DNA of 64,000 nucleotides from positions 37,644 to 101,643 of the IMG/VR virus record IMGVR_UViG_3300036944_000513; one strand, 5' to 3'. Of this stretch, positions 12,446 to 37,934 are shown piece after piece. The notes below the pieces were generated by a model. The model was not told the origin of the DNA. It made no database searches and saw nothing but the letters and a program-made list of their open reading frames with translations. The stretch is from a virus. Its lineage: Duplodnaviria > Heunggongvirae > Uroviricota > Caudoviricetes. Made by a program: the position numbers and the translations under genes. How positions within the stretch are numbered: position 1 is the stretch's first letter; each line of letters opens with the position of its first letter.

Positions 12446-12787
12446 TTAATCGTTGTTTTTACGCAACGCCACACGCTCTTTGAGTTCTTCGAGTTCAATT
12501 TCCAGCGCAGCATTTAGCATTTCGACAAATATTTTCAATTCCGTTTTTTTCATACATGCAACAACAACTTCCCCCATCATATCGGTGACTTTAATAGCAA
12601 CGCCATAATTTTCTTTTGTCCATGACGCTTCGATAATGCCATCACCCTCGGAATCTGTGATATAAACCCTTCGCTGAGTATTATCAGAATAATCTTCATC
12701 AATTTCATCTGTCATATCACAATATGATGTAAATCCCATTTCATCAGTAATAATCAATGGTGAAATCATTTCAATTAATTTTCTCAT
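12446..12787 (-). CDS. hypothetical protein
   Basis: 113 aa; ATGA overlap with the upstream family gene. Confidence 0.5.
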   Translation of the reverse strand: MRKLIEMISPLIITDEMGFTSYCDMTDEIDEDYSDNTQRRVYITDSEGDGIIEASWTKENYGVAIKVTDMMGEVVVACMKKTELKIFVEMLNAALEIELEELKERVALRKNND

Positions 12788-12993
12788 TCTTCAACTCCAA
12801 AATGTTCTAAAATACCACGGGGGCCGTCATATGCAAGTGTGGCGCATTCTTTAACAATCAATTCGGCAAACTTTTGATCATAAACATGAAGGAAAGTATA
12901 ATCTATTTCTCCGCCATCATCAAAAAAACTACCAAATTTTTCTTCGGTGTCATCCCACGCCTGTTCAGCAAGTTCTTTAATTCGTTCGTTCAT
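12784..12993 (-). CDS. MNERIKELAEQAG / FAELIVKEC / HFGVEE family small protein (paralog)
   Basis: MNERIKELAEQAWDD...KFAELIVKECATLAY...EHFGVEE. Confidence 0.6.
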   Translation of the reverse strand: MNERIKELAEQAWDDTEEKFGSFFDDGGEIDYTFLHVYDQKFAELIVKECATLAYDGPRGILEHFGVEE

Positions 12994-17002: not shown

Positions 17003-17032
17003 AGTTTACCAAAATATCGTTTCGTTGTCAAG
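17003..17032 (-). promoter_or_regulatory. sigma70-type promoter (-35 TTGACA, 17 bp, -10 TAAACT)
   Basis: Immediately downstream of the macro-domain gene stop; followed by a GGAGA SD and an ATG. Confidence 0.5.
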
Positions 17033-17495
17033 CAAATTCTACGACAGTTACACTTCCAAAAAAATTACTTTCAATTTTTTCAGAAAATGATTCAAGTAGT
17101 GCCATGATTTTTTCTGAATCGCCGCCAGCCAATCCCATTCCAATCATTGGAAATCCAATCTTTTTATCGTTATAGCGAACAATAAGTTTATTGAGAATTT
17201 TTTCAAATGAATCATATTCAAAAAGGTCTTTCATATCATCGCCACGATTCATGCCATATTGAGTATATGCGTTAACGATAACCAAGTCATGCCAATTACC
17301 AATAGTATAGCAGCCAAGTTTATCGGTATCGCCCCATACACTATGCTGATCTGCTAACCAAGCATCGGGAAAATGCTCTTTAATTTGACGCGCAATGCCA
17401 CCGCCCATTGTATTAAAACAATTTGCGCCATGCACGATAACATCGAATCTACCCTCTTTTGCGAGAGCAATCAAATCACCTTTAATTTTATTCAT
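17028..17495 (-). CDS. macro-domain protein (ADP-ribose / ADP-ribose-1''-phosphate processing)
   Basis: GDLIALAKEGRFDVIVHGANCFNTMGGGIA matches the macro-domain GD...NAAN...GGGV signature. The in-frame ATG at 17495 was used, because the track start is TTG. Confidence 0.65.
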   Translation of the reverse strand: MNKIKGDLIALAKEGRFDVIVHGANCFNTMGGGIARQIKEHFPDAWLADQHSVWGDTDKLGCYTIGNWHDLVIVNAYTQYGMNRGDDMKDLFEYDSFEKILNKLIVRYNDKKIGFPMIGMGLAGGDSEKIMALLESFSEKIESNFFGSVTVVEFA

Positions 17496-17698: not shown

Positions 17699-18163
17699 TT
17701 AATTAATTATAATAATTTCTGAGTAACCTTCATCGGTGGTTGGCATCTGAAATTGAGAAATCATTGAGTCTACCACATTTTTTGGAATATGCTTTCCTGC
17801 CCGACCAGACAATCGTACATCCAATTCATCACGCCTTGGAGTAGGAAATACTACTGCAATATGAGTATATCGTTTCAACATATTGAATTTCTTTTTGCGA
17901 CTGGCAATTGTCGTAGAAGTTTGATCCCAAATAATATCTTTCCCTGTAATGCGCGCATTGATAACATCATCCATCATCAAATCAATTGCAGTTGGCATAT
18001 ATTCAGCAAACACTTCATTATAGGTAAGATCAAGTTTTTTTGCTTGGGCTTCAATATGATGGTCAGTTGAAATATAAACGTAATCCTTCGTGAGAGTTTG
18101 ATTCTTAACCCACGTAGATTTACCAGCAGCAGGGACACCAACTAACACGTATACTTTCAACAT
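17699..18163 (-). CDS. P-loop kinase (polynucleotide-kinase-like / AAA_33)
   Basis: VLVGVPAAGKST Walker A close to the N-terminus; 154 aa. Its size and position next to a phosphoesterase and an RNA ligase suggest a Pnk kinase-domain analogue. Confidence 0.55.
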   Translation of the reverse strand: MLKVYVLVGVPAAGKSTWVKNQTLTKDYVYISTDHHIEAQAKKLDLTYNEVFAEYMPTAIDLMMDDVINARITGKDIIWDQTSTTIASRKKKFNMLKRYTHIAVVFPTPRRDELDVRLSGRAGKHIPKNVVDSMISQFQMPTTDEGYSEIIIIN

Positions 18164-18171
18164 ACTTTCCT

Positions 18172-18717
18172 TTAATGATTATGACGTTTAATTTCGCCCT
18201 TTAATGCCATATCAATCGCCGTACTTAATTGAATTGGATAGCAATTATGATTATCCATACCAACATCAATGCAACGATATTGTTCCATTCCACTTTTGCC
18301 GCCATGCAAATGTCCATGAAAATGAACAGACCCACGATGCATCTGATCCCATTCGCATATGGGGTAATGAAACATTATAACTTTAGTTTTATCAATTGTC
18401 AACGAATAATAATCTTGAATTGCATCAAACTCATTGCAAAATGCTCTGTCGTTTATCAGTTTAACATCATGATTGCCACGAATCAAGGTTTTATTACCAT
18501 TGAGCCGCTTCAAATATCGTACTGCTTTTTCTGCATTACAAAAAGCCACATCACCCAAAATATAGGTATGGTCATTGGGCTGAACTACTGAGTTCCATCG
18601 CCGAATAATTTCTTCATCCATTTTATCCGCATCACCTTCGCCAAATGCCCGTGATACAGGACAAAAGCTCATGATGTTTTTATGCGAAAAATGAATATCG
18701 CTTGTAATAAAATCCAT
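18172..18717 (-). CDS. calcineurin-like metallophosphoesterase
   Basis: Motifs DIHFSH, GDVAF, GNHD and HGHLH. Confidence 0.65.
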   Translation of the reverse strand: MDFITSDIHFSHKNIMSFCPVSRAFGEGDADKMDEEIIRRWNSVVQPNDHTYILGDVAFCNAEKAVRYLKRLNGNKTLIRGNHDVKLINDRAFCNEFDAIQDYYSLTIDKTKVIMFHYPICEWDQMHRGSVHFHGHLHGGKSGMEQYRCIDVGMDNHNCYPIQLSTAIDMALKGEIKRHNH

Positions 18718-19153: not shown

Positions 19154-19247
19154 AGTATAGCACAACATTTTGTGCGTGTCAACAAAAATGTCCATCGCCG
19201 TACTGGTAATACGCATGGACTCTAACAGTTTAAAAGGAACTATCAGC

Positions 19248-19919
19248 ATGACTATTTATTGCGTCTATCTAACCATATACCGAGGAATAAGACTTCCCCC
19301 ATTTTACATTGGTTCAAGTTCAGTAGAAAAAGTTCAAACCGGCTATCATGGATCAGTATGTTCCAACGAGTATAAGTCTATTTGGAAATCGGAACTTAGA
19401 TTTAACTCTAACTTATTTGAAACAAAAATAATTTCCATTCATTCGAACAGAAAAGAAGCAACTCTTAAAGAACATACGCTTCAAAAGAAAGTCGATGCTG
19501 TTAAAAATCCTCTTTATATTAATAAATCATTTGCTGTATATGATGGTTTTACAGATATGGATCAGTCTGGCAAAAATAACCCAATGTATGGCACCTCCCG
19601 CACCGGAGAAGCAAATCCGTTTTATGGGCAAAAACACACAGAAGAAGCTATTGCTAAGATGAGAGGAAGAAAATGTTCAGATAAAAACAAAAGGTTATAT
19701 AGCAAACTCAAATCGGGCATTACTGACTCTGCGGAAACTAAACAAAAAAAGAGTATATCCAAAAAAGGGAAGCCGCCAAACAGTTCCAAAGTTCTCAACT
19801 TGATATTAAAACAGAAGTTTATCTGTATGCTTGATACTAAGAAAGAATATACCTATGTAAATGCTTGTCAACGGCTCCCTGAGATTAAACATCTTTTTTG
19901 GAAAAAAAAGTTAGTTTAA
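19248..19919 (+). CDS. GIY-YIG homing endonuclease (Seg-like, with NUMOD3 repeats)
   Basis: TIYCVYL...FYIGSS is a GIY-YIG signature; two NUMOD3-like NPMYG / NPFYGQKHTEE motifs. It is on the opposite strand to its neighbours, with an AAAGGAA SD before the ATG at 19248. Confidence 0.7.
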   Translation: MTIYCVYLTIYRGIRLPPFYIGSSSVEKVQTGYHGSVCSNEYKSIWKSELRFNSNLFETKIISIHSNRKEATLKEHTLQKKVDAVKNPLYINKSFAVYDGFTDMDQSGKNNPMYGTSRTGEANPFYGQKHTEEAIAKMRGRKCSDKNKRLYSKLKSGITDSAETKQKKSISKKGKPPNSSKVLNLILKQKFICMLDTKKEYTYVNACQRLPEIKHLFWKKKLV

Positions 19920-20810
19920 AAACTCTCGAACCCACTTCAATTTTTCTTGTTCAGTCTTTGTGGTGTATGCGTCAATATTTTCACGAATCGCAGAAAGCAA
20001 CGGGTAATATTCCTCATCAATTTGTTCTTTAAACTCCTTGGTGAGCAATTTTTCAGTTTTAGGATTGCGTGCTACCCATTTACTTACTAAATAGTAAGGG
20101 CTTTTAATTTTAAAAGACTGACTATCTTCTGTGTATGCAATGAATCCTTCGTGCTTAACCTTCTTTGATTCAGCAATCAATTCACCCACGGTCATACGAT
20201 AAGATTCTACCGGATGACATTTAATTGTATCCTCAGAAAATATCTTCCATACTACATCACAAACAAAGCCGTTAACCTTAGACTCCCATGAGTTTTCACG
20301 CCAGCCAAGAAAATACATTCCTGCTTTTTCTGGGACAATGTGTGGGTCACTTGGATGCACACATTCAAACATGAAAGTATGACCTTCATTGCTGGCAATA
20401 TTGATAACCCAATCCTCCCAGCACATATGCTTTAACATCATTTCTTTTGCATAGTCAACGTAATCGTTGGCAGTGCTTCCAGTGGTGGATATTAAAATAT
20501 CGTTATTGTGCCAAGTCATCGCAATCATAAAGCCATTAACTTTACGATATGCAATTACCGGAGTATCATCCGATAAAATAGGAGATTTATCTTCTACGCC
20601 ATAATTATAGATTTTCGTGAATGGGCGTGATATTACATTGAAATCTTTATCAATGATTGTACCACGACATTCCTCAAGAAAATCGTTCCATAAATTATCA
20701 TAAAATACTTTTTTAGAATATTTTAGTACAAAAATTCCATCACCGGCTGGCTTCATTGAAACCAGAGTTGGATTAGATTCTACGAAATGTTTTAGTGCAG
20801 CTTTGTTCAT
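19911..20810 (-). CDS. RNA ligase 1 (T4 RnlA-like)
   Basis: ECRGTIID / SRPFTKIYN / YRKVNGFM (motif I KxNG) / TTGS align with T4 Rnl1 ECRGIMF / SRPMEKFFN / KEDGSL / SKGS; HEGFIAY (motif IV) and FKIKSP (motif V). Confidence 0.6.
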   Translation of the reverse strand: MNKAALKHFVESNPTLVSMKPAGDGIFVLKYSKKVFYDNLWNDFLEECRGTIIDKDFNVISRPFTKIYNYGVEDKSPILSDDTPVIAYRKVNGFMIAMTWHNNDILISTTGSTANDYVDYAKEMMLKHMCWEDWVINIASNEGHTFMFECVHPSDPHIVPEKAGMYFLGWRENSWESKVNGFVCDVVWKIFSEDTIKCHPVESYRMTVGELIAESKKVKHEGFIAYTEDSQSFKIKSPYYLVSKWVARNPKTEKLLTKEFKEQIDEEYYPLLSAIRENIDAYTTKTEQEKLKWVREFLN

Positions 20811-21324: not shown

Positions 21325-21520
21325 ACTCGTCTGCTGGATAGTAACGACCCATCTTCAAGTCATCAATATCAACTTCCATGCGCAAAACATTTTCATGGCT
21401 AGATTCGTACATACACAGCAGCCATTCTACGCGCTCAACTACGCTTCCCTCGCGCCAGTCTTTGCTATCCTCAAATAGCTCAGTTGGCAGCAGTTTTTTG
21501 ATTCGGTCTAGTTCGTTCAT
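21314..21520 (-). CDS. hypothetical protein
   Basis: 68-aa ORF. Confidence 0.4.
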   Translation of the reverse strand: MNELDRIKKLLPTELFEDSKDWREGSVVERVEWLLCMYESSHENVLRMEVDIDDLKMGRYYPADEFDK

Positions 21521-21936
21521 TTTAAAAAAGAATTTCTAATTGCAACTGCATCATGGAGAGCATTATGTGGGATTCTTGACTCATATTCAATAGCAAGATT
21601 CAACTCAAAATTAATTTTTGTGGGCATCAAAATTCGTTCACCCGGCCCCGTAATCAAAGACTCACAGAAATATTTAATATCATCGGGCCAATCCGCAACA
21701 ATGGTGCATTTATTGAACATGAAAAGATAGGATGATAGTTTGGATTGGAACTCACCCCTTGAAAGTGGAACATGAAACATATGCGGCACGACATTATCCC
21801 GAACCCAAGGGTCAAGTTGATCTGTCATTTCCAACTCACAATAAAATACTGGAATATTTACATCTTCTGGCACAAGCGCCATAGACATTAGTTTACCACC
21901 AAATCCATTAAATTCTGTATCTAAAAATAGTTTCAT
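21517..21936 (-). CDS. DEDD-family 3'-5' exonuclease (DnaQ/RNase T-like)
   Basis: Exo I LDTEFNG and Exo III HNALHDA motifs. Confidence 0.6.
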   Translation of the reverse strand: MKLFLDTEFNGFGGKLMSMALVPEDVNIPVFYCELEMTDQLDPWVRDNVVPHMFHVPLSRGEFQSKLSSYLFMFNKCTIVADWPDDIKYFCESLITGPGERILMPTKINFELNLAIEYESRIPHNALHDAVAIRNSFLK

Positions 21937-22268: not shown

Positions 22269-22655
22269 TTAGTAAGACATATTTCCCATGCGATCAAATG
22301 CAGTTTCACCTTTAGTCTTTGCATTCAAAATATAAATATTTTTTACATTGTACCGCTTTTCGTTAACATCGTCAAGATAGACGTATGGATTAAGTTCCCA
22401 TTTACAGACTTTATTATAGTTTTTCTTTAGATCAGCGAGTTCTTCTGGGGGGAGTTGATAGTCCCAATCTTTACGATCAATGCATTGTTCTAAGCGACAT
22501 GATTCCAGCCAATATTTCTCAGTCATTTTTACAAGGTCAGATTCAGCCAACTCTGGGTTAATATCCATCCAGTCTCCAACCATGCCATTCCATAGTTTGA
22601 TTTCTGGGTCTCCTTTTAAGGAATTCAATATTTCAATCAATTTAGATTTCTTCAT
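22269..22655 (-). CDS. hypothetical protein
   Basis: 128-aa ORF. Confidence 0.45.
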   Translation of the reverse strand: MKKSKLIEILNSLKGDPEIKLWNGMVGDWMDINPELAESDLVKMTEKYWLESCRLEQCIDRKDWDYQLPPEELADLKKNYNKVCKWELNPYVYLDDVNEKRYNVKNIYILNAKTKGETAFDRMGNMSY

Positions 22656-22879
22656 TCTTCAACTCCGAAATGTTTATCAACCTCATCAAAGATATCATCA
22701 ATGTCTCGTTCAGGGTCATGAGGATTCATTTCCTCAATAACGCTTAAACATTCCTTCACAATCAACTCGGCGAATCTAACTTCTTTTGGCATATACGTCA
22801 GCATATCAAAATCATCAAGATTGCCCTGCCCATAAATCATACCTGCTTCTTTAGCAAGTTCTAAGATTCGTTTGTTCAT
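22652..22879 (-). CDS. MNxRIKELAEQAG / FAELIVKEC / HFGVEE family small protein (paralog)
   Basis: MNKRILELAKEAG...RFAELIVKECLS...KHFGVEE. Confidence 0.6.
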   Translation of the reverse strand: MNKRILELAKEAGMIYGQGNLDDFDMLTYMPKEVRFAELIVKECLSVIEEMNPHDPERDIDDIFDEVDKHFGVEE

Positions 22880-23385
22880 TTTTCAACTCCAATATATCGT
22901 TTAGCTTCTGCCATGAGAGTTGCATCGCCCTTAGTTAATACTTCAAGGAGCAATCTTTTTTCTTCAAGATATACAACTGCAAAGTTTGGGTCATACTGCA
23001 TAATACTTTTCGTATTACTAATCAAGTCTGCAAGTTTAACTGTTTGCGCTTCTGCTGGAGCATTGAAAATATACTCTCTGTCCATGCGCTTGCGAAATTC
23101 TCTGTTACCATATTCTGGTTTAGAGATATCGGTCAACCAACCAACCAATCCAGCAATAATACTGCCAAATTCTTGGGTAATAATTTCGTTGGTAACTTTA
23201 GTATCTTCTACAACATCATGCAGCCATGCAGCAGCAATCATATCAGGAGTGCCACCCACACGTTTTACGATGCTGGCAACTTCTGCTGGATGGACGATAT
23301 AAGGCGCACCAGTGTATTTCCTGCGCTGGTCAACGGCTGCGTGTGCAGCGGTGGCAAAAATCCTTGCCTTTTCCACTTTGTCCAT
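22876..23385 (-). CDS. HD-domain (p)ppGpp hydrolase-like protein (small alarmone hydrolase, RelA/SpoT HD family)
   Basis: ATAAHAAVDQRRKYTGAPYIVHP...AAWLHDVVEDT matches the SpoT/Mesh1 HD hydrolase signature. Confidence 0.65.
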   Translation of the reverse strand: MDKVEKARIFATAAHAAVDQRRKYTGAPYIVHPAEVASIVKRVGGTPDMIAAAWLHDVVEDTKVTNEIITQEFGSIIAGLVGWLTDISKPEYGNREFRKRMDREYIFNAPAEAQTVKLADLISNTKSIMQYDPNFAVVYLEEKRLLLEVLTKGDATLMAEAKRYIGVEK

Positions 23386-23416
23386 TACTATTCTCCATAT
23401 GAATGTCTATAAACGT

Positions 23417-23446
23417 AGTTTACAACAACATTGGAGTCTATGTCAA
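23417..23446 (-). promoter_or_regulatory. sigma70-type promoter (-35 TTGACA, 18 bp, -10 TAAACT)
   Basis: Upstream of the HD hydrolase gene; GGAGAA SD. Confidence 0.45.
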
Positions 23447-23568
23447 GCATTTCTTCTGGTGTTCTATAAGAAAATGCTTTATTTTGACTTTTCCACCACA
23501 ATTCTATTAAAGCATTGCTGCCAAGTAATGCTAATAGATACGGTTGCAATTTTTCTTTAATTGCAATA

Positions 23569-23814
23569 TTATTTCTGAGTATATTCTTTGCCATCAATAA
23601 TAACTGAGGTGGTGCGAGCTTTATTGCCCATTTGTACCGTAGTTGAACTTTCTGGGCAGCGACCAACGGTAATGCGGGAACCGGTGCCGTTGACTATCTC
23701 ATAAAACTTACAATCCTTTAGCTCATCAGGTACGGCAGGAAAGTTTATTTGTGTTGCGCTTGGTGTACATCCAACCAATAATGCTAGGGTTGATACTAAG
23801 ATAAATCGTTTCAT
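23569..23814 (-). CDS. lipoprotein (signal peptide with lipobox LVGC)
   Basis: MKRFILVSTLALLVGCTPS. Confidence 0.55.
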   Translation of the reverse strand: MKRFILVSTLALLVGCTPSATQINFPAVPDELKDCKFYEIVNGTGSRITVGRCPESSTTVQMGNKARTTSVIIDGKEYTQK

Positions 23815-23817
23815 TCT

Positions 23818-23940
23818 TCAACTCCAAAACATTTTTTTAACAAAACTAAAGATAATCATAAAAATTGTAAAGTAAGCAGCAACACCTATCATCAATAAAA
23901 ATAAAGTAGCCAACCAACCTGCTTTATCGCCTTCACTCAT
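23818..23940 (-). CDS. small membrane protein (40 aa, single TM)
   Basis: MSEGDKAGWLATLFLLMIGVAAYFTIFMIIFSFVKKMFWS; ATGA overlaps at both ends. Confidence 0.4.
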   Translation of the reverse strand: MSEGDKAGWLATLFLLMIGVAAYFTIFMIIFSFVKKMFWS

Positions 23941-24197
23941 TCTTCAACTCCGAAATGTTCTTTAATCCGATATGCTGACCAATTTGCCCCATGACCAAAC
24001 TCTGGACTACCATCTAACTCATCGCTTATATGAGCATGGCCTATTTCACTGCAAATTTTAGCACATTCTTTAACAATCAACTCGGCGAAATTTGCAATTT
24101 GATTCTCGCCCCAGAGCACATTTTCAGGCATACCATAACCTAGCGAACACTCTCTCATTCCAGCCTGTTCAGCCAGTTGTTTAATTCGTTCGTTCAT
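23937..24197 (-). CDS. MNERIKELAEQAG / FAELIVKEC / HFGVEE family small protein (paralog)
   Basis: MNERIKQLAEQAG...NFAELIVKECAKIC...EHFGVEE. Confidence 0.6.
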   Translation of the reverse strand: MNERIKQLAEQAGMRECSLGYGMPENVLWGENQIANFAELIVKECAKICSEIGHAHISDELDGSPEFGHGANWSAYRIKEHFGVEE

Positions 24198-24394: not shown

Positions 24395-24564
24395 TCTTTT
24401 ACTCCCGTTTCCCAAAGACCATTACTAATCATCAAGCGCAACCAGTATGTAAACTTACGATTGCCAAACTTTCGGCGATACTTGTTTAGCATGGCCTTGG
24501 CTTCAACATACTCATTGCTATTGATAGCGTCCGCAATTCTTTCAACTGCTGTTTTGACTTTCAT
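24391..24564 (-). CDS. hypothetical small protein (57 aa)
   Basis: MKVKTAVERIADAINSNEYVEAKAML...; below the track's size cut-off; ATGA coupling at both ends. Confidence 0.4.
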   Translation of the reverse strand: MKVKTAVERIADAINSNEYVEAKAMLNKYRRKFGNRKFTYWLRLMISNGLWETGVKE

Positions 24565-24836
24565 TCTTCAACTCCGAAATGTTGTTTCATTTTGAATCGC
24601 AATATGTCACAAGCCGCTTCACCCTCTGTATAGATTTTCTTCATCTTAAGGTCTGTTTGTTCTTTTCGATTATTAAAGTATTGTGCTTCCAGTTCGGTTG
24701 CCATTCCCATACATTCTTTCACAATCAACTCGGCGAACTTTTCAGCAAAGTCTTTACTGTATGGAATAGTCACAGGATATCCATCAGGACTTTGATGTGA
24801 AGCCTGTTCAGCCAGTTCTAGAATTCGTTCATTCAT
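24561..24836 (-). CDS. MNERIKELAEQAG / FAELIVKEC / HFGVEE family small protein (paralog)
   Basis: MNERILELAEQAS...KFAELIVKECMG...QHFGVEE. Confidence 0.6.
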   Translation of the reverse strand: MNERILELAEQASHQSPDGYPVTIPYSKDFAEKFAELIVKECMGMATELEAQYFNNRKEQTDLKMKKIYTEGEAACDILRFKMKQHFGVEE

Positions 24837-24999
24837 TCTTCAACTCCGAAATGTTGTTTCAAGACCAACTTAAATTCAATCTCCGGCGTGAGCATTGGAT
24901 GCTCAACTTTGTCTTGGATTAGTTGGTGTCGCCCTTCGGTATTTGATCTACCAAGCAACACACCATTATAGTATACTTCCCACTCATAATTTTCGTAAA

Positions 25000-25239
25000 T
25001 CATTCCTCAACTCCGAAATGTTCTTTTACTCGTCTTGCCGCATTTTGAACAGCATTGGCGCTTTCAAATTCATCTTTATCCCAGTACCACTTTGATTCTT
25101 TAAGAATAGTGGTCATACATTCTGCCACAATCAACTCGGCGAACTTTTCTAATTCATTGTTACGAAATACAAGCCCGCTAATGCCTGCCCTTCGTCCAGC
25201 GCCAGCCTGTTCGGCAAGTTCTTGTATTCGTTCGTTCAT
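25000..25239 (-). CDS. MNERIKELAEQAG / FAELIVKEC / HFGVEE family small protein (paralog)
   Basis: MNERIQELAEQAGAG...KFAELIVAECMT...EHFGVEE. Confidence 0.6.
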   Translation of the reverse strand: MNERIQELAEQAGAGRRAGISGLVFRNNELEKFAELIVAECMTTILKESKWYWDKDEFESANAVQNAARRVKEHFGVEE

Positions 25240-25721
25240 TCAATCCGTTCCTCATATACAGTTGTTGGCGTATATGGGAATTCTACTGCAACTCGGCTCT
25301 CTCTGCAAGTAAAATGTGATTTACTTTTTACGCCTGTTTCTGGGTCGGTATACCAATCCCAAAAAACTTTACCGTCAATATCATATGCGCTGCCATCGGC
25401 ATCTTTAAAAACCCTACTGGCGCGTTTATTTTGATAGTGAGGTGTGCCATCGCCATACCCTGAAACATCTACCCATTCGTCATCTTCACCAGTAAGTGGG
25501 GTCAATGGATCAAATCTAAGGAGTTTTTCAAGCACATTAACAGCATAACTTGCAGAGAATCCAGAAAATCCAGAATTACTAAATACTAATATGATATTCA
25601 AAATAGATTCCCGCATCATGCGATTTATTTCATCGGGAGAATCTTCGGTCATTCCAATAATATCCAACTCTCGCTTACTAAATTCAATCATAAAACTATG
25701 CCCCATATAAAAATTAAACAT
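25236..25721 (-). CDS. hypothetical protein
   Basis: 161-aa ORF. Confidence 0.45.
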   Translation of the reverse strand: MFNFYMGHSFMIEFSKRELDIIGMTEDSPDEINRMMRESILNIILVFSNSGFSGFSASYAVNVLEKLLRFDPLTPLTGEDDEWVDVSGYGDGTPHYQNKRASRVFKDADGSAYDIDGKVFWDWYTDPETGVKSKSHFTCRESRVAVEFPYTPTTVYEERIE

Positions 25722-26642: not shown

Positions 26643-26939
26643 TTATCCTTTTCTTTCATTCATATTGATTATATCAAGGTCTAAGTTTGGATGGACTTCA
26701 AACGAATCTTGAATATATTGTTCCAGTCTTTGAATCTCATTAGCAGCTTCTTCAAGCAAATCTGAAATACGATCAGGCTTACCTTCTTCTACGCTTTTAC
26801 GACTTTGAATCTGTCTGCGTATCTCTGCGCGTTTACGCAGACGAAATACTAGGCTTTGTTCTGAAACTGGCAAATGACTCTCATCTTTTAAAATATCGTT
26901 TGCCATATGTTCTTCAAAGCGATCAAATTCTTCCTTCAT
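26643..26939 (-). CDS. hypothetical protein
   Basis: 98-aa ORF. Confidence 0.4.
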   Translation of the reverse strand: MKEEFDRFEEHMANDILKDESHLPVSEQSLVFRLRKRAEIRRQIQSRKSVEEGKPDRISDLLEEAANEIQRLEQYIQDSFEVHPNLDLDIINMNERKG

Positions 26940-37292: not shown

Positions 37293-37934
37293 TTATCTTG
37301 CATGGGGCAACCACTTGGTTACTTGTTCTAGCAAGTTTGGCTTTACTGCACTCCACCCTTCCTTTTTAAAAGATTGTTTGTAATAGTTATATGAATTGAG
37401 TTTTCGCTTTTTATCTATGTTATTTAACACTTCATACGGGTCTTGGTTTTTATAATAAAATTTTATCTCCATTGCAATATCATGTCCACGCGCATCCATT
37501 TCATCTGGGTCAATTAAGTATTCAAGCGTATCTTTTTCAGATACTTCATAATTTAAATATAGCTTCTTAAAATTGATTTTCTGAATTGGTTCTCTGCGTT
37601 TAACTCTTTTCCATTGGTCTGAGTGTATTGTTTCATGTTGTATTGTCTGGGATATAGAAAAATGAAACTCTTTAAATTTAGTTGGGGGTAATCTAAGATC
37701 ATCTACATGTTCTGAAAAAAATAAAACTACATGTCTAATGTTTCTATAAGAATCATATACTCCCCCAACTGCATATTCATCTGGGGGAAGATTTATCTTT
37801 TGGAAATTAAACTTCAATGTTTCACTGCCCAATTCAGACTTGAGTAGTTTAACTATTTTTTTATATGAATTTGTCCCAATTAATTCTGGTTTAATATTAC
37901 GAATTCCTTCGTTTATTTTATCAGCAAAATGCAT
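37293..37934 (-). CDS. hypothetical protein
   Basis: 213-aa ORF. Confidence 0.5.
   Translation of the reverse strand: MHFADKINEGIRNIKPELIGTNSYKKIVKLLKSELGSETLKFNFQKINLPPDEYAVGGVYDSYRNIRHVVLFFSEHVDDLRLPPTKFKEFHFSISQTIQHETIHSDQWKRVKRREPIQKINFKKLYLNYEVSEKDTLEYLIDPDEMDARGHDIAMEIKFYYKNQDPYEVLNNIDKKRKLNSYNYYKQSFKKEGWSAVKPNLLEQVTKWLPHAR

Follow-up and report, generated by a model that had tools for sequence, protein, structure and literature searches.

The gene at positions 22876-23385 of a 64,000-nt stretch of DNA from a Caudoviricetes virus (positions 37,644 to 101,643 of IMG/VR virus record IMGVR_UViG_3300036944_000513; hereafter the window) encodes a protein that is best described, from its sequence relationships, as a PaSpo-type small alarmone hydrolase (SAH). 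Gene linkage and domain fusions tie the phage-borne clade to which it belongs to RNA end-healing and sealing enzymes, and a role that combines counter-defence with tRNA repair appears likely, if some way from assured. A first-pass annotation, made from the sequence alone, had proposed a 169-aa open reading frame (ORF) at exactly these coordinates, which are confirmed; its strand, absent from that annotation, is minus. The feature is real and far beyond a chance match. The protein matches Pfam HD_4 (PF13328) at E=2.5e-16 and 60.2 bits against a cut-off of 27.2, and PHROG 990, "metal-dependent phosphohydrolase," at E=3e-39; its only other Pfam match, to HD (PF01966), lies right at the cut-off. 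The match to TIGR00691 (spoT_relA; E=1e-23, 83.5 bits) is restricted to the N-terminal hydrolase part of the model, positions 3-125 of 687, and its score lies far under the full-length cut-off of 499, as expected because a single domain is compared with a full-length model. Among PDB sequences, Rel, SpoT, MESH1 and SAH chains are matched at E=7e-16 to 1e-10, with Bacillus subtilis Rel on top (E=7e-16), followed by RelSeq, Lmo0812, SpoT, MESH1 and several bacterial SAHs. The domain make-up is that which defines an SAH: a lone hydrolase domain of the RelA-SpoT homologue (RSH) type, devoid of synthetase, TGS and ACT domains. The RelA/SpoT/Mesh1 HD signature from which the gene was first recognized is present as H15, H32-P33 and A51-A52-A53-W54-L55-H56-D57-V58-V59-E60-D61-T62 (residues 51-62, AAAWLHDVVEDT).

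Alignment to RelSeq, the structural archetype, places every residue of the active site. The metal ligands H32, H56, D57 and D120 correspond to RelSeq H53, H77, D78 and D144; the catalytic pair of the HDxxED motif, E60 and D61, to E81 and D82; and the substrate contacts R22, K23, Y29 and N124 to R44, K45, Y50 and N148. In conservation alignments of 23, 57 and 60 homologues at 32-91% identity, the metal tetrad is invariant (57-60 diverse homologues), as are E60-D61, K23, Y29 and N124, and R22 is conserved in at least 90% of the sequences. Absence of the HD metal-binding residues from a careful alignment, the observation that the first-pass annotation had singled out as speaking against its own proposal, does not occur; all ligands are present. 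An AlphaFold2 model built from the 57-sequence alignment is all-helical and of high confidence (mean pLDDT 97.7, pTM 0.92), and in it the Mesh1/SAH fold is predicted to span the full length of the protein. When this model is compared with the PDB by Foldseek, full-length stand-alone SAHs rank first (TMq 0.82-0.87), headed by human MESH1, including its NADPH complex (TMq 0.85-0.87, root-mean-square deviation [rmsd] 1.8-2.3 Å), with Drosophila Mesh1, a Leptospira SAH, a Pseudomonas aeruginosa SAH and Corynebacterium glutamicum RelH as the other leading matches; the hydrolase domains of long Rel and SpoT come next. Family matches, intact catalytic residues and the MESH1/SAH fold thus bear out the earlier identification of a stand-alone RelA/SpoT/Mesh1-type HD hydrolase, and the protein is very probably an active enzyme of the SAH type. 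By analogy with characterized enzymes, we infer its metal, its substrates and its in vivo role. The single HD domain would hold a divalent metal, Mn2+ in characterized members, through H32, H56, D57 and D120, and E60-D61 would activate a water molecule, leading to cleavage of the 3′-pyrophosphate from the ribose. Candidate substrates on the same analogy are (p)ppGpp and (p)ppApp, and probably also pyrophosphorylated tRNA 3′ ends. The (p)ppApp-specific hydrolase of the Aph1 type (7SMG) was considered as a closer counterpart and rejected, with a sequence match of E=6e-4, TMq 0.56-0.65 and a Foldseek rank of 36, under all SAH and Rel matches.

The prominence of human MESH1 in the structural comparison brings with it a different possible substrate. 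MESH1 is reported to be an NADPH phosphatase, its complexes, that with NADPH included, are the best structural matches, and three NAD-related genes lie near the phage gene, encoding Tad3, a stand-alone Nlig-Ia domain and a Macro protein. On these grounds the phage protein might convert NADP(H) to NAD(H), allowing the phage to withstand NAD+-depleting defences. We consider this very improbable: similarity in structure to bacterial SAHs is equally high, and the conserved partners of the gene, described below, are RNA-end enzymes, not NAD-salvage enzymes.

Phage SAHs as such are a known kind, tested in 2020 and widely annotated, and one more would not surprise a specialist. The stand-alone phage SAHs tested, those of PVP-SE1 (PbcSpo) and SSU5 (PaSpo), both neutralized all five validated toxic small alarmone synthetases (toxSAS), CapRel, PhRel, PhRel2, FaRel2 and FaRel, in vivo, and it was explicitly proposed that SAHs let phages bypass alarmone-based abortive infection (Jimmy et al., 2020; PMC7229694). 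PaSpo is routinely co-expressed for detoxifying CapRel and PhRel2, and annotations of new phage genomes now label their SAHs as such. The protein encoded in the window is 48% identical to SSU5 PaSpo (SSU5_099) over 154 aa (E=7e-46) and 34% identical to PVP-SE1 gp220 (PbcSpo) over 124 aa; these values make PaSpo-type its best description, an assignment by proxy, from similarity to the SSU5 reference instead of the subfamily hidden Markov models and tree of Jimmy et al. With gp220 so much less similar, the protein is unlikely to belong to PbcSpo. The most likely role for such a protein would be to counter abortive RSH toxins (CapRel, PhRel, FaRel and similar). What these toxins do to tRNA gives this role a second dimension. 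FaRel2, PhRel, PhRel2 and CapRel pyrophosphorylate tRNA at its 3′-CCA end, and tRNA modified in this way can be aminoacylated again in vitro once treated with the SAHs MESH1 or ATfaRel, which led to the suggestion that RSH hydrolases may modify RNA in a manner comparable to the 3′-phosphatase of T4 Pnk (Kurata et al., 2021). The relevant substrate of the phage protein may likewise be pyrophosphorylated tRNA, instead of or besides the free alarmones that the first-pass annotation had in mind; it had overlooked this possibility.

The gene neighbourhood of the clade points in the same direction. When ORFs were called in 74 related viral loci and those flanking the HD gene, four to either side, were clustered, the five commonest neighbour families all proved to lie on the same strand as the HD gene. 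A calcineurin-like phosphoesterase of ~182 aa is found directly upstream in 45 of the 74 loci, an AAA_33 P-loop kinase of ~154 aa upstream in 34, and a phosphatase of DSP/PTP type (Tc-R-P, PTP-SAK; ~159 aa), also upstream, in 29; an RNA_lig_T4_1 ligase of ~301 aa lies directly downstream in 21, and a ~70-aa protein without assigned function lies downstream, one to four genes from the HD gene, in 30. Beyond these five, turnover of neighbours is rapid, as the next family in frequency is present in just 8 of the 74 loci. Of the 44 clusters into which the HD proteins fall at 90% identity, 24 retain the phosphoesterase, the kinase or the ligase, or more than one of them, in many gene orders. The combination of a kinase, a metallophosphoesterase and a ligase is that found in the domains of RNA repair enzymes of the bacterial Pnkp type. 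Fusions, sought among 42 longer 50%-cluster representatives, extend the association to single polypeptides. In one (P0189), a CCA-adding-type nucleotidyltransferase (PolyA_pol head, 120 bits; RNA-binding; tRNA_NucTran2_2) is followed by the HD domain and then by an NT5C nucleotidase; in a second (P0157), the HD domain is fused to RlaP, an RNA-repair nucleotidyltransferase of the Pol-beta type; in a third (P0171), it is fused to the cassette phosphoesterase itself, in a locus (L098) with the order kinase, two small genes, phosphoesterase-HD fusion, ligase. A fourth (P0155) is a polyvalent protein with HD, transglutaminase and ART domains, and nine representatives (P0149, P0172, P0175, P0186, P0204, P0219, P0228, P0244 and P0257) have in common a C-terminal extension of ~100-300 aa whose sole resemblance is a weak one to HEPN_Swt1. 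Fusions and neighbourhood both point, at the level of sequence, to RNA chemistry and specifically to the tRNA 3′-end. In the literature searched, no account was found of the embedding of an SAH clade in kinase-phosphoesterase-Rnl1 cassettes or of its fusions to CCA-adding enzymes and RlaP. In unrelated cultured phages the picture of the cassette link is mixed: Pseudomonas phage Viktualia has Thg1 three genes from its HD gene and Rhizobium phage RHph_Y2_11 has RtcB 2.5 kb from its own, HicAB adjoins the HD gene of phiKM1, and nothing relevant is annotated near the HD genes of Bas82 and SSU5.

The same company could be kept by an enzyme of a more ordinary sort. A generic RNA 3′-end phosphatase or 2′,3′-cyclic phosphodiesterase, modelled on the HD domain of the Escherichia coli CCA-adding enzyme or on the phosphatase of T4 Pnk, would repair tRNAs cut by anticodon nucleases and not remove pyrophosphate; it would fit a conserved cassette with a kinase, a phosphoesterase and an Rnl1 ligase, and fusions to a CCA-adding enzyme and RlaP, and HD-like domains have been noted to serve occasionally as RNA-repair phosphatases (Iyer et al., 2021; PMC7824862). 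That the phage SAH works in this manner is nonetheless improbable, given that the metallophosphoesterase of the cassette already covers such chemistry, and that the SAH keeps the complete set of RSH-specific residues and has 3′-pyrophosphohydrolases as its nearest characterized relatives.

More weight attaches to a reading in which no defence system need be involved. The SAH would then degrade the (p)ppGpp made by host RelA/SpoT, keeping rRNA, tRNA and nucleotide synthesis and translation running during takeover of the host, and the link to repair genes would arise because tRNA damage triggers RelA. The SAH has an active site identical to the one with which Rel, SpoT and Mesh1 hydrolyse (p)ppGpp, its predicted structure matches ppGpp-hydrolysing Mesh1, its location is of an early type with sigma70 promoters, and the "HD-alarmone PDEases" of jumbo phages have been interpreted as acting on alarmones, in counter-nucleotide defence (Iyer et al., 2021; PMC7824862). 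Host takeover as the main function is still rather unlikely in our judgment, because it leaves unexplained the fusions to CCA-adding and RlaP nucleotidyltransferases and to an RNA-end phosphoesterase, because the closest tested homologue was characterized as a toxSAS neutralizer, and because most T4-like phages are without such a gene. The roles are not mutually exclusive, since SAHs are promiscuous.

A combined role in counter-defence and tRNA repair accommodates both the tested activities of the relatives and the cassette. The SAH would supply an additional 3′-end healing activity beside a toolkit of PNK-like kinase, metallophosphoesterase and Rnl1 ligase. A stronger form of this proposal, that SAHs of the PaSpo clade are primarily tRNA-CCA 3′-de-pyrophosphorylases, a dedicated fourth healing activity against toxSAS (e.g., CapRel) damage that is integrated with the cassettes and joined, in certain lineages, to a CCA-adding enzyme or RlaP in one polypeptide, is one that we put forward tentatively and with rather more doubt than belief. 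Several observations weigh against reading the linkage and the enzyme in these ways. The 74 loci belong to related phages, so that their synteny is partly inherited, not independently selected; the P0189 and P0171 fusions each occur on one contig only, and the other fusions were not traced to contigs. No repair genes are annotated near the HD genes of OLIVR5 and JA11, and the cassette families were found at none of 80 genome loci of cellular homologues. In the window itself the cassette is looser, with six small genes between the HD gene and the ligase and a homing endonuclease as an interruption. Moreover, sequence does not discriminate among (p)ppGpp, (p)ppApp, pyrophosphorylated tRNA and NADPH as the preferred substrate, the biochemically characterized relatives are all less than 55% identical to the protein, and toxSAS defences in the host of this phage are putative.

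The features of the window that bear on these questions are collected in Table 1. The SAH gene lies within an uninterrupted run of small minus-strand genes, and three of the four cassette partners (all but the DSP phosphatase) are found within 5.7 kb of it on the same strand. The window thus has a co-located, co-oriented kinase, phosphoesterase and RNA ligase, the composition expected of a heal-and-seal set. Its Rnl1 is 57% identical to the cassette ligase that comes after the HD gene in relatives, and the best solved relative of its kinase, in a weak match (E=1e-3), is Pnkp1 of a bacterial RNA-repair complex. The intruding NUMOD3 gene separates the Rnl1 ligase from the phosphoesterase-kinase pair. 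A homologue of the ~70-aa cassette protein is encoded at 26643-26939 (minus), 3.3 kb upstream of the SAH gene. On the other side of the kinase, one small (67-aa) ORF downstream, is the Macro-domain gene, whose product may act on derivatives of ADP-ribose connected with RNA repair or with NAD-based defence.

Table 1. Features in and around the SAH gene, in coordinates of the window
Feature	Position	Strand	Details
AAA_33 P-loop kinase, polynucleotide-kinase-like	17699..18163	minus	Pfam AAA_33; 56-63% identical to cassette kinase
Calcineurin-like metallophosphoesterase	18172..18717	minus	Pfam Metallophos; ~52% identical to cassette family
Macro-domain protein, borderline	17028..17495	minus	Pfam Macro 22.7 bits, cut-off 22
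NUMOD3 homing-endonuclease-like gene	19188..19919	plus	overlaps 3′ end of ligase gene by 9 nt
T4 Rnl1-type RNA ligase	19911..20810	minus	Pfam RNA_lig_T4_1; T4 Rnl1 structures E=4e-10
Stand-alone Nlig-Ia (NAD+-binding N-terminal domain of NAD-dependent DNA ligase), 111 aa	21933..22268	minus	PF22745, 92 bits
75-aa "HFGVEE" paralogue-family gene	22652..22879	minus	start overlaps SAH stop by 4 nt
SAH gene, PaSpo-type (best description), single HD_4 domain, 169 aa	22876..23385	minus	ATG-initiated ORF
Shine-Dalgarno GGAG	23393..23396	minus	read from sequence; 7 nt upstream of ATG (23385)
Preceding 68-aa ORF	23388..23594	minus	stop codon 2 nt before SAH start; coding-conserved in relatives
Sigma70-like promoter candidate	23417..23449	minus	TGC-TTGACA, 18-nt spacer, TAAACT; 10/12 consensus match
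Tad3 (type I Thoeris inhibitor) homologue	25236..25721	minus	PF25185, E=6.6e-37, 126 bits

An anti-defence gene lies close by as well. The Tad3 gene, located 1.9 kb upstream of the SAH gene behind a perfect sigma70 promoter (TTGACA-N17-TATAAT, 25865-25837, 12/12 matches), is also near the SAH gene in the close relatives L092 and L094. Taken together, the segment reads as an anti-defence and RNA-repair island, which fits the counter-defence interpretation, and a PaSpo-type SAH beside Tad3 in a T4-like phage as deep-branching as this one would mark an anti-defence island worth mining. The Nlig-Ia gene, too, is kept near the SAH gene in L092. A 139-aa protein encoded between the SAH and Rnl1 genes (21517-21936, minus) matches PHROG 2259 ("RNase H") and has no Pfam or PDB sequence match; motifs reminiscent of DEDDh exonucleases (DTEF ... 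HNALHDA) are discernible by eye only.

The possibility that the SAH belongs to a defence or toxin system, and does not oppose one, can be judged from its immediate neighbours. There are SAHs that act as FaRel-type antitoxins (Jimmy et al., 2020; PMC7229694), and the protein might be the type IV antitoxin (ATfaRel-like) of a phage-borne toxSAS pair, shielding the phage or lysogen from its own toxin. This is scarcely credible here: the flanking ORFs (68, 75, 81 and 128 aa) lack a RelA_SpoT synthetase match, the recurrent neighbour clusters of the 74 related loci, as far as annotated, include no synthetase-like family, and the phage is a T4-like myovirus of lytic type. The reading of the locus as a toxSAS-antitoxin operon was rejected for want of an adjacent synthetase gene. 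Nor is the SAH gene a defence-system component, since PADLOC returned no match for it and five neighbours. The 68-aa ORF just upstream, called as a gene in locus L096 and not in L001, shows a weak likeness to the toxin-binding C-terminal domain of Xre/MbcA/ParS antitoxins (PF09722, 21.9 bits, under the 24.5 cut-off); it could conceivably be a decoy antitoxin against NAD-targeting toxins. Its start is overlapped by the 3′ end of a gene for an 81-aa protein (23569-23814, minus) with a lipoprotein-type signal, MKRFILVSTLALLVGC, and a weak DUF4884 match in the source annotation. The 75-aa gene on the other side, without a Pfam or PHROG match, is one of six small minus-strand paralogues (12784-12993, 22652-22879, 23937-24197, 24561-24836, 24833-25003 and 25000-25239), none of which has a match in either database. 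Five of the six cluster around the SAH gene; most begin MNERI.ELAEQA and all end HFGVEE, and their C-terminal GVEE codons double as the Shine-Dalgarno sequence of the overlapping next gene. The C-terminus of the SAH itself is IGVEK.

The first-pass annotation had also credited the gene with its own sigma70-type promoter. A candidate element with 10 of 12 consensus matches does exist, with its -35 TTGACA at 23446-23441 and its -10 TAAACT ending at 23417, 31 nt upstream of the ATG on the minus strand; this putative promoter lies, however, within the preceding ORF. Its -35 does not vary across five relatives, which have TAAACT or TACACT as the -10. The element sits inside the 3′ end of the conserved, coding 68-aa ORF, and the 183 bp upstream of the SAH gene are conserved as coding in the alignment of relatives; for this reason, conservation of the promoter cannot be told apart from constraint on the protein. 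Six copies of the extended -35 motif TGCTTGAC are present in the window, all of them on the coding strand, against 2.1 expected, and 1 of 100 shuffles reached six; five of the six sites have a -10 at 17-18 nt. The SAH candidate shares this architecture with the other TGCTTGAC sites upstream of genes, and its own promoter is plausible on this sequence evidence. Across the window the sites conform to a promoter class, (A/T)(A/T)TGCTTGAC(A/G), present on the coding strand only (3654, 16142, 17034, 20848, 23449 and 60363, minus). The minus strand has 53 promoter-like sites with at least 10 of 12 matches, the plus strand 19. The gene is equally well placed for read-through and translational coupling, as 2 nt separate its ATG from the stop codon upstream, and a 4-nt overlap joins its own stop codon to the next start. 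Transcription would start either at upstream promoters of the same gene run or at the candidate just upstream, and host sigma70 RNA polymerase would transcribe the gene early in infection. We infer an early-region position because small genes on the same strand, in a long run and with sigma70-like promoters, adjoin a T4-type replication module.

That module helps to identify the source. The window, with a GC content of 37% and 118 of its 136 crude ORFs on the minus strand, carries a T4-type gp43 polymerase, gp41 helicase, UvsX, gp44 clamp loader and two RNA ligases, together with tRNA-Arg and tRNA-Met. Its gp43 matches 2,676 phage records, none of them at 50% identity or more, with cyanomyoviruses nearest, and a megablast search of a 2.5-kb region against 50,697 phage records gave no match, indicating that there is no annotated near-relative. 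Judged by this divergence and gene content, the source is a deep-branching, uncultured T4-like myovirus of lytic type. SAH homologues occur in 321 phage records, mostly jumbo and non-T4-like, against the 2,676 for gp43; the gene is accessory, and the earlier remark that it is not part of the T4 core holds. The family at large is extensive, with 5,266 homologous proteins at E<=1e-10 in a 90%-clustered database and, among 50%-cluster representatives, 21,992 at E<=1e-3 and 713 at E<=1e-30. Within it, a tight clade of ~167-aa proteins, 55-74% identical to the SAH of the window, is abundant on viral contigs, where it was found with an alignment query, a single-sequence scan of the same contigs having given nothing; several homologues of ~70% identity lie on phage-like metagenomic contigs of 180-360 kb. 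In a search of 185,579 bacterial and archaeal species, each represented by one genome, the best cellular match is at most 52% identical, and most cellular matches are to the N-terminal HD domain of long RSH proteins. By these identities the clade is essentially phage-borne.

Should SAHs of the PaSpo clade indeed be dedicated tRNA 3′-de-pyrophosphorylases, pyrophosphorylation of the tRNA 3′ end would be a kind of RNA damage widely used against phages, to which a repair pathway corresponds. The linkage offers a testable hypothesis, namely that toxSAS-pyrophosphorylated tRNA is repaired within the phage RNA-repair programme.

Set beside known systems, the enzyme itself is familiar and its setting less so. 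The long RSH hydrolase domains (RelSeq, 1VJ7; B. subtilis Rel, 8ACU; SpoT, 7QPR) are its best PDB sequence matches (E=7e-16 to 1e-12), and the catalytic residues of RelSeq map onto its own one-to-one; these proteins, however, are allosterically controlled multidomain enzymes that also contain synthetase, TGS and ACT domains, whereas the phage protein is the hydrolase domain alone. MESH1/Mesh1 (3NR1, 5VXA and 3NQW) provides the best structural matches (TM 0.85-0.87, rmsd ~2 Å) at 27-31% identity, has the same catalytic residues, cleaves ppGpp and de-pyrophosphorylates tRNA CCA ends in vitro, but it is a eukaryotic housekeeping enzyme, also an NADPH phosphatase, without phage or defence context. 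The jumbo-phage "HD-alarmone PDEase" is of the same domain type and likewise comes from large phages; the survey that described it files it under nucleotide-signal degradation, without a link to RNA-repair cassettes (Iyer et al., 2021). PVP-SE1 gp220 is a stand-alone phage SAH of the same length, 169 aa, that neutralizes all tested toxSAS and even has an RnlB RNA ligase ~7 kb from its gene, yet at only 34% identity it represents a different SAH subfamily. SSU5 PaSpo is closer, also a phage-encoded single HD_4 domain with every catalytic motif in common. It differs in its length of 213 aa with a C-terminal tail, in its carrier, a temperate plasmid-like siphovirus, and in having no RNA-repair genes annotated adjacent to it, in contrast to a T4-like myovirus with what reads as a repair and anti-defence island; the protein of the window, moreover, is a member of a more compact clade, abundant among large phages known from metagenomes.

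To our knowledge, an RSH-type HD hydrolase is part of neither T4 Pnk-Rnl1 nor Pnkp, and the literature searched gave no instance of one in these systems. The conserved neighbours of the SAH clade nevertheless comprise, as separate genes, the same kinase, metallophosphoesterase and ligase set as Pnkp. What distinguishes the phage arrangement from T4 Pnk with Rnl1 and from bacterial Pnkp is the RSH-type HD hydrolase in its midst, with a presumptive part in the cassette; if that part is confirmed, the tRNA-repair paradigm of T4 Pnk and Rnl1 would be extended to a second type of tRNA damage.

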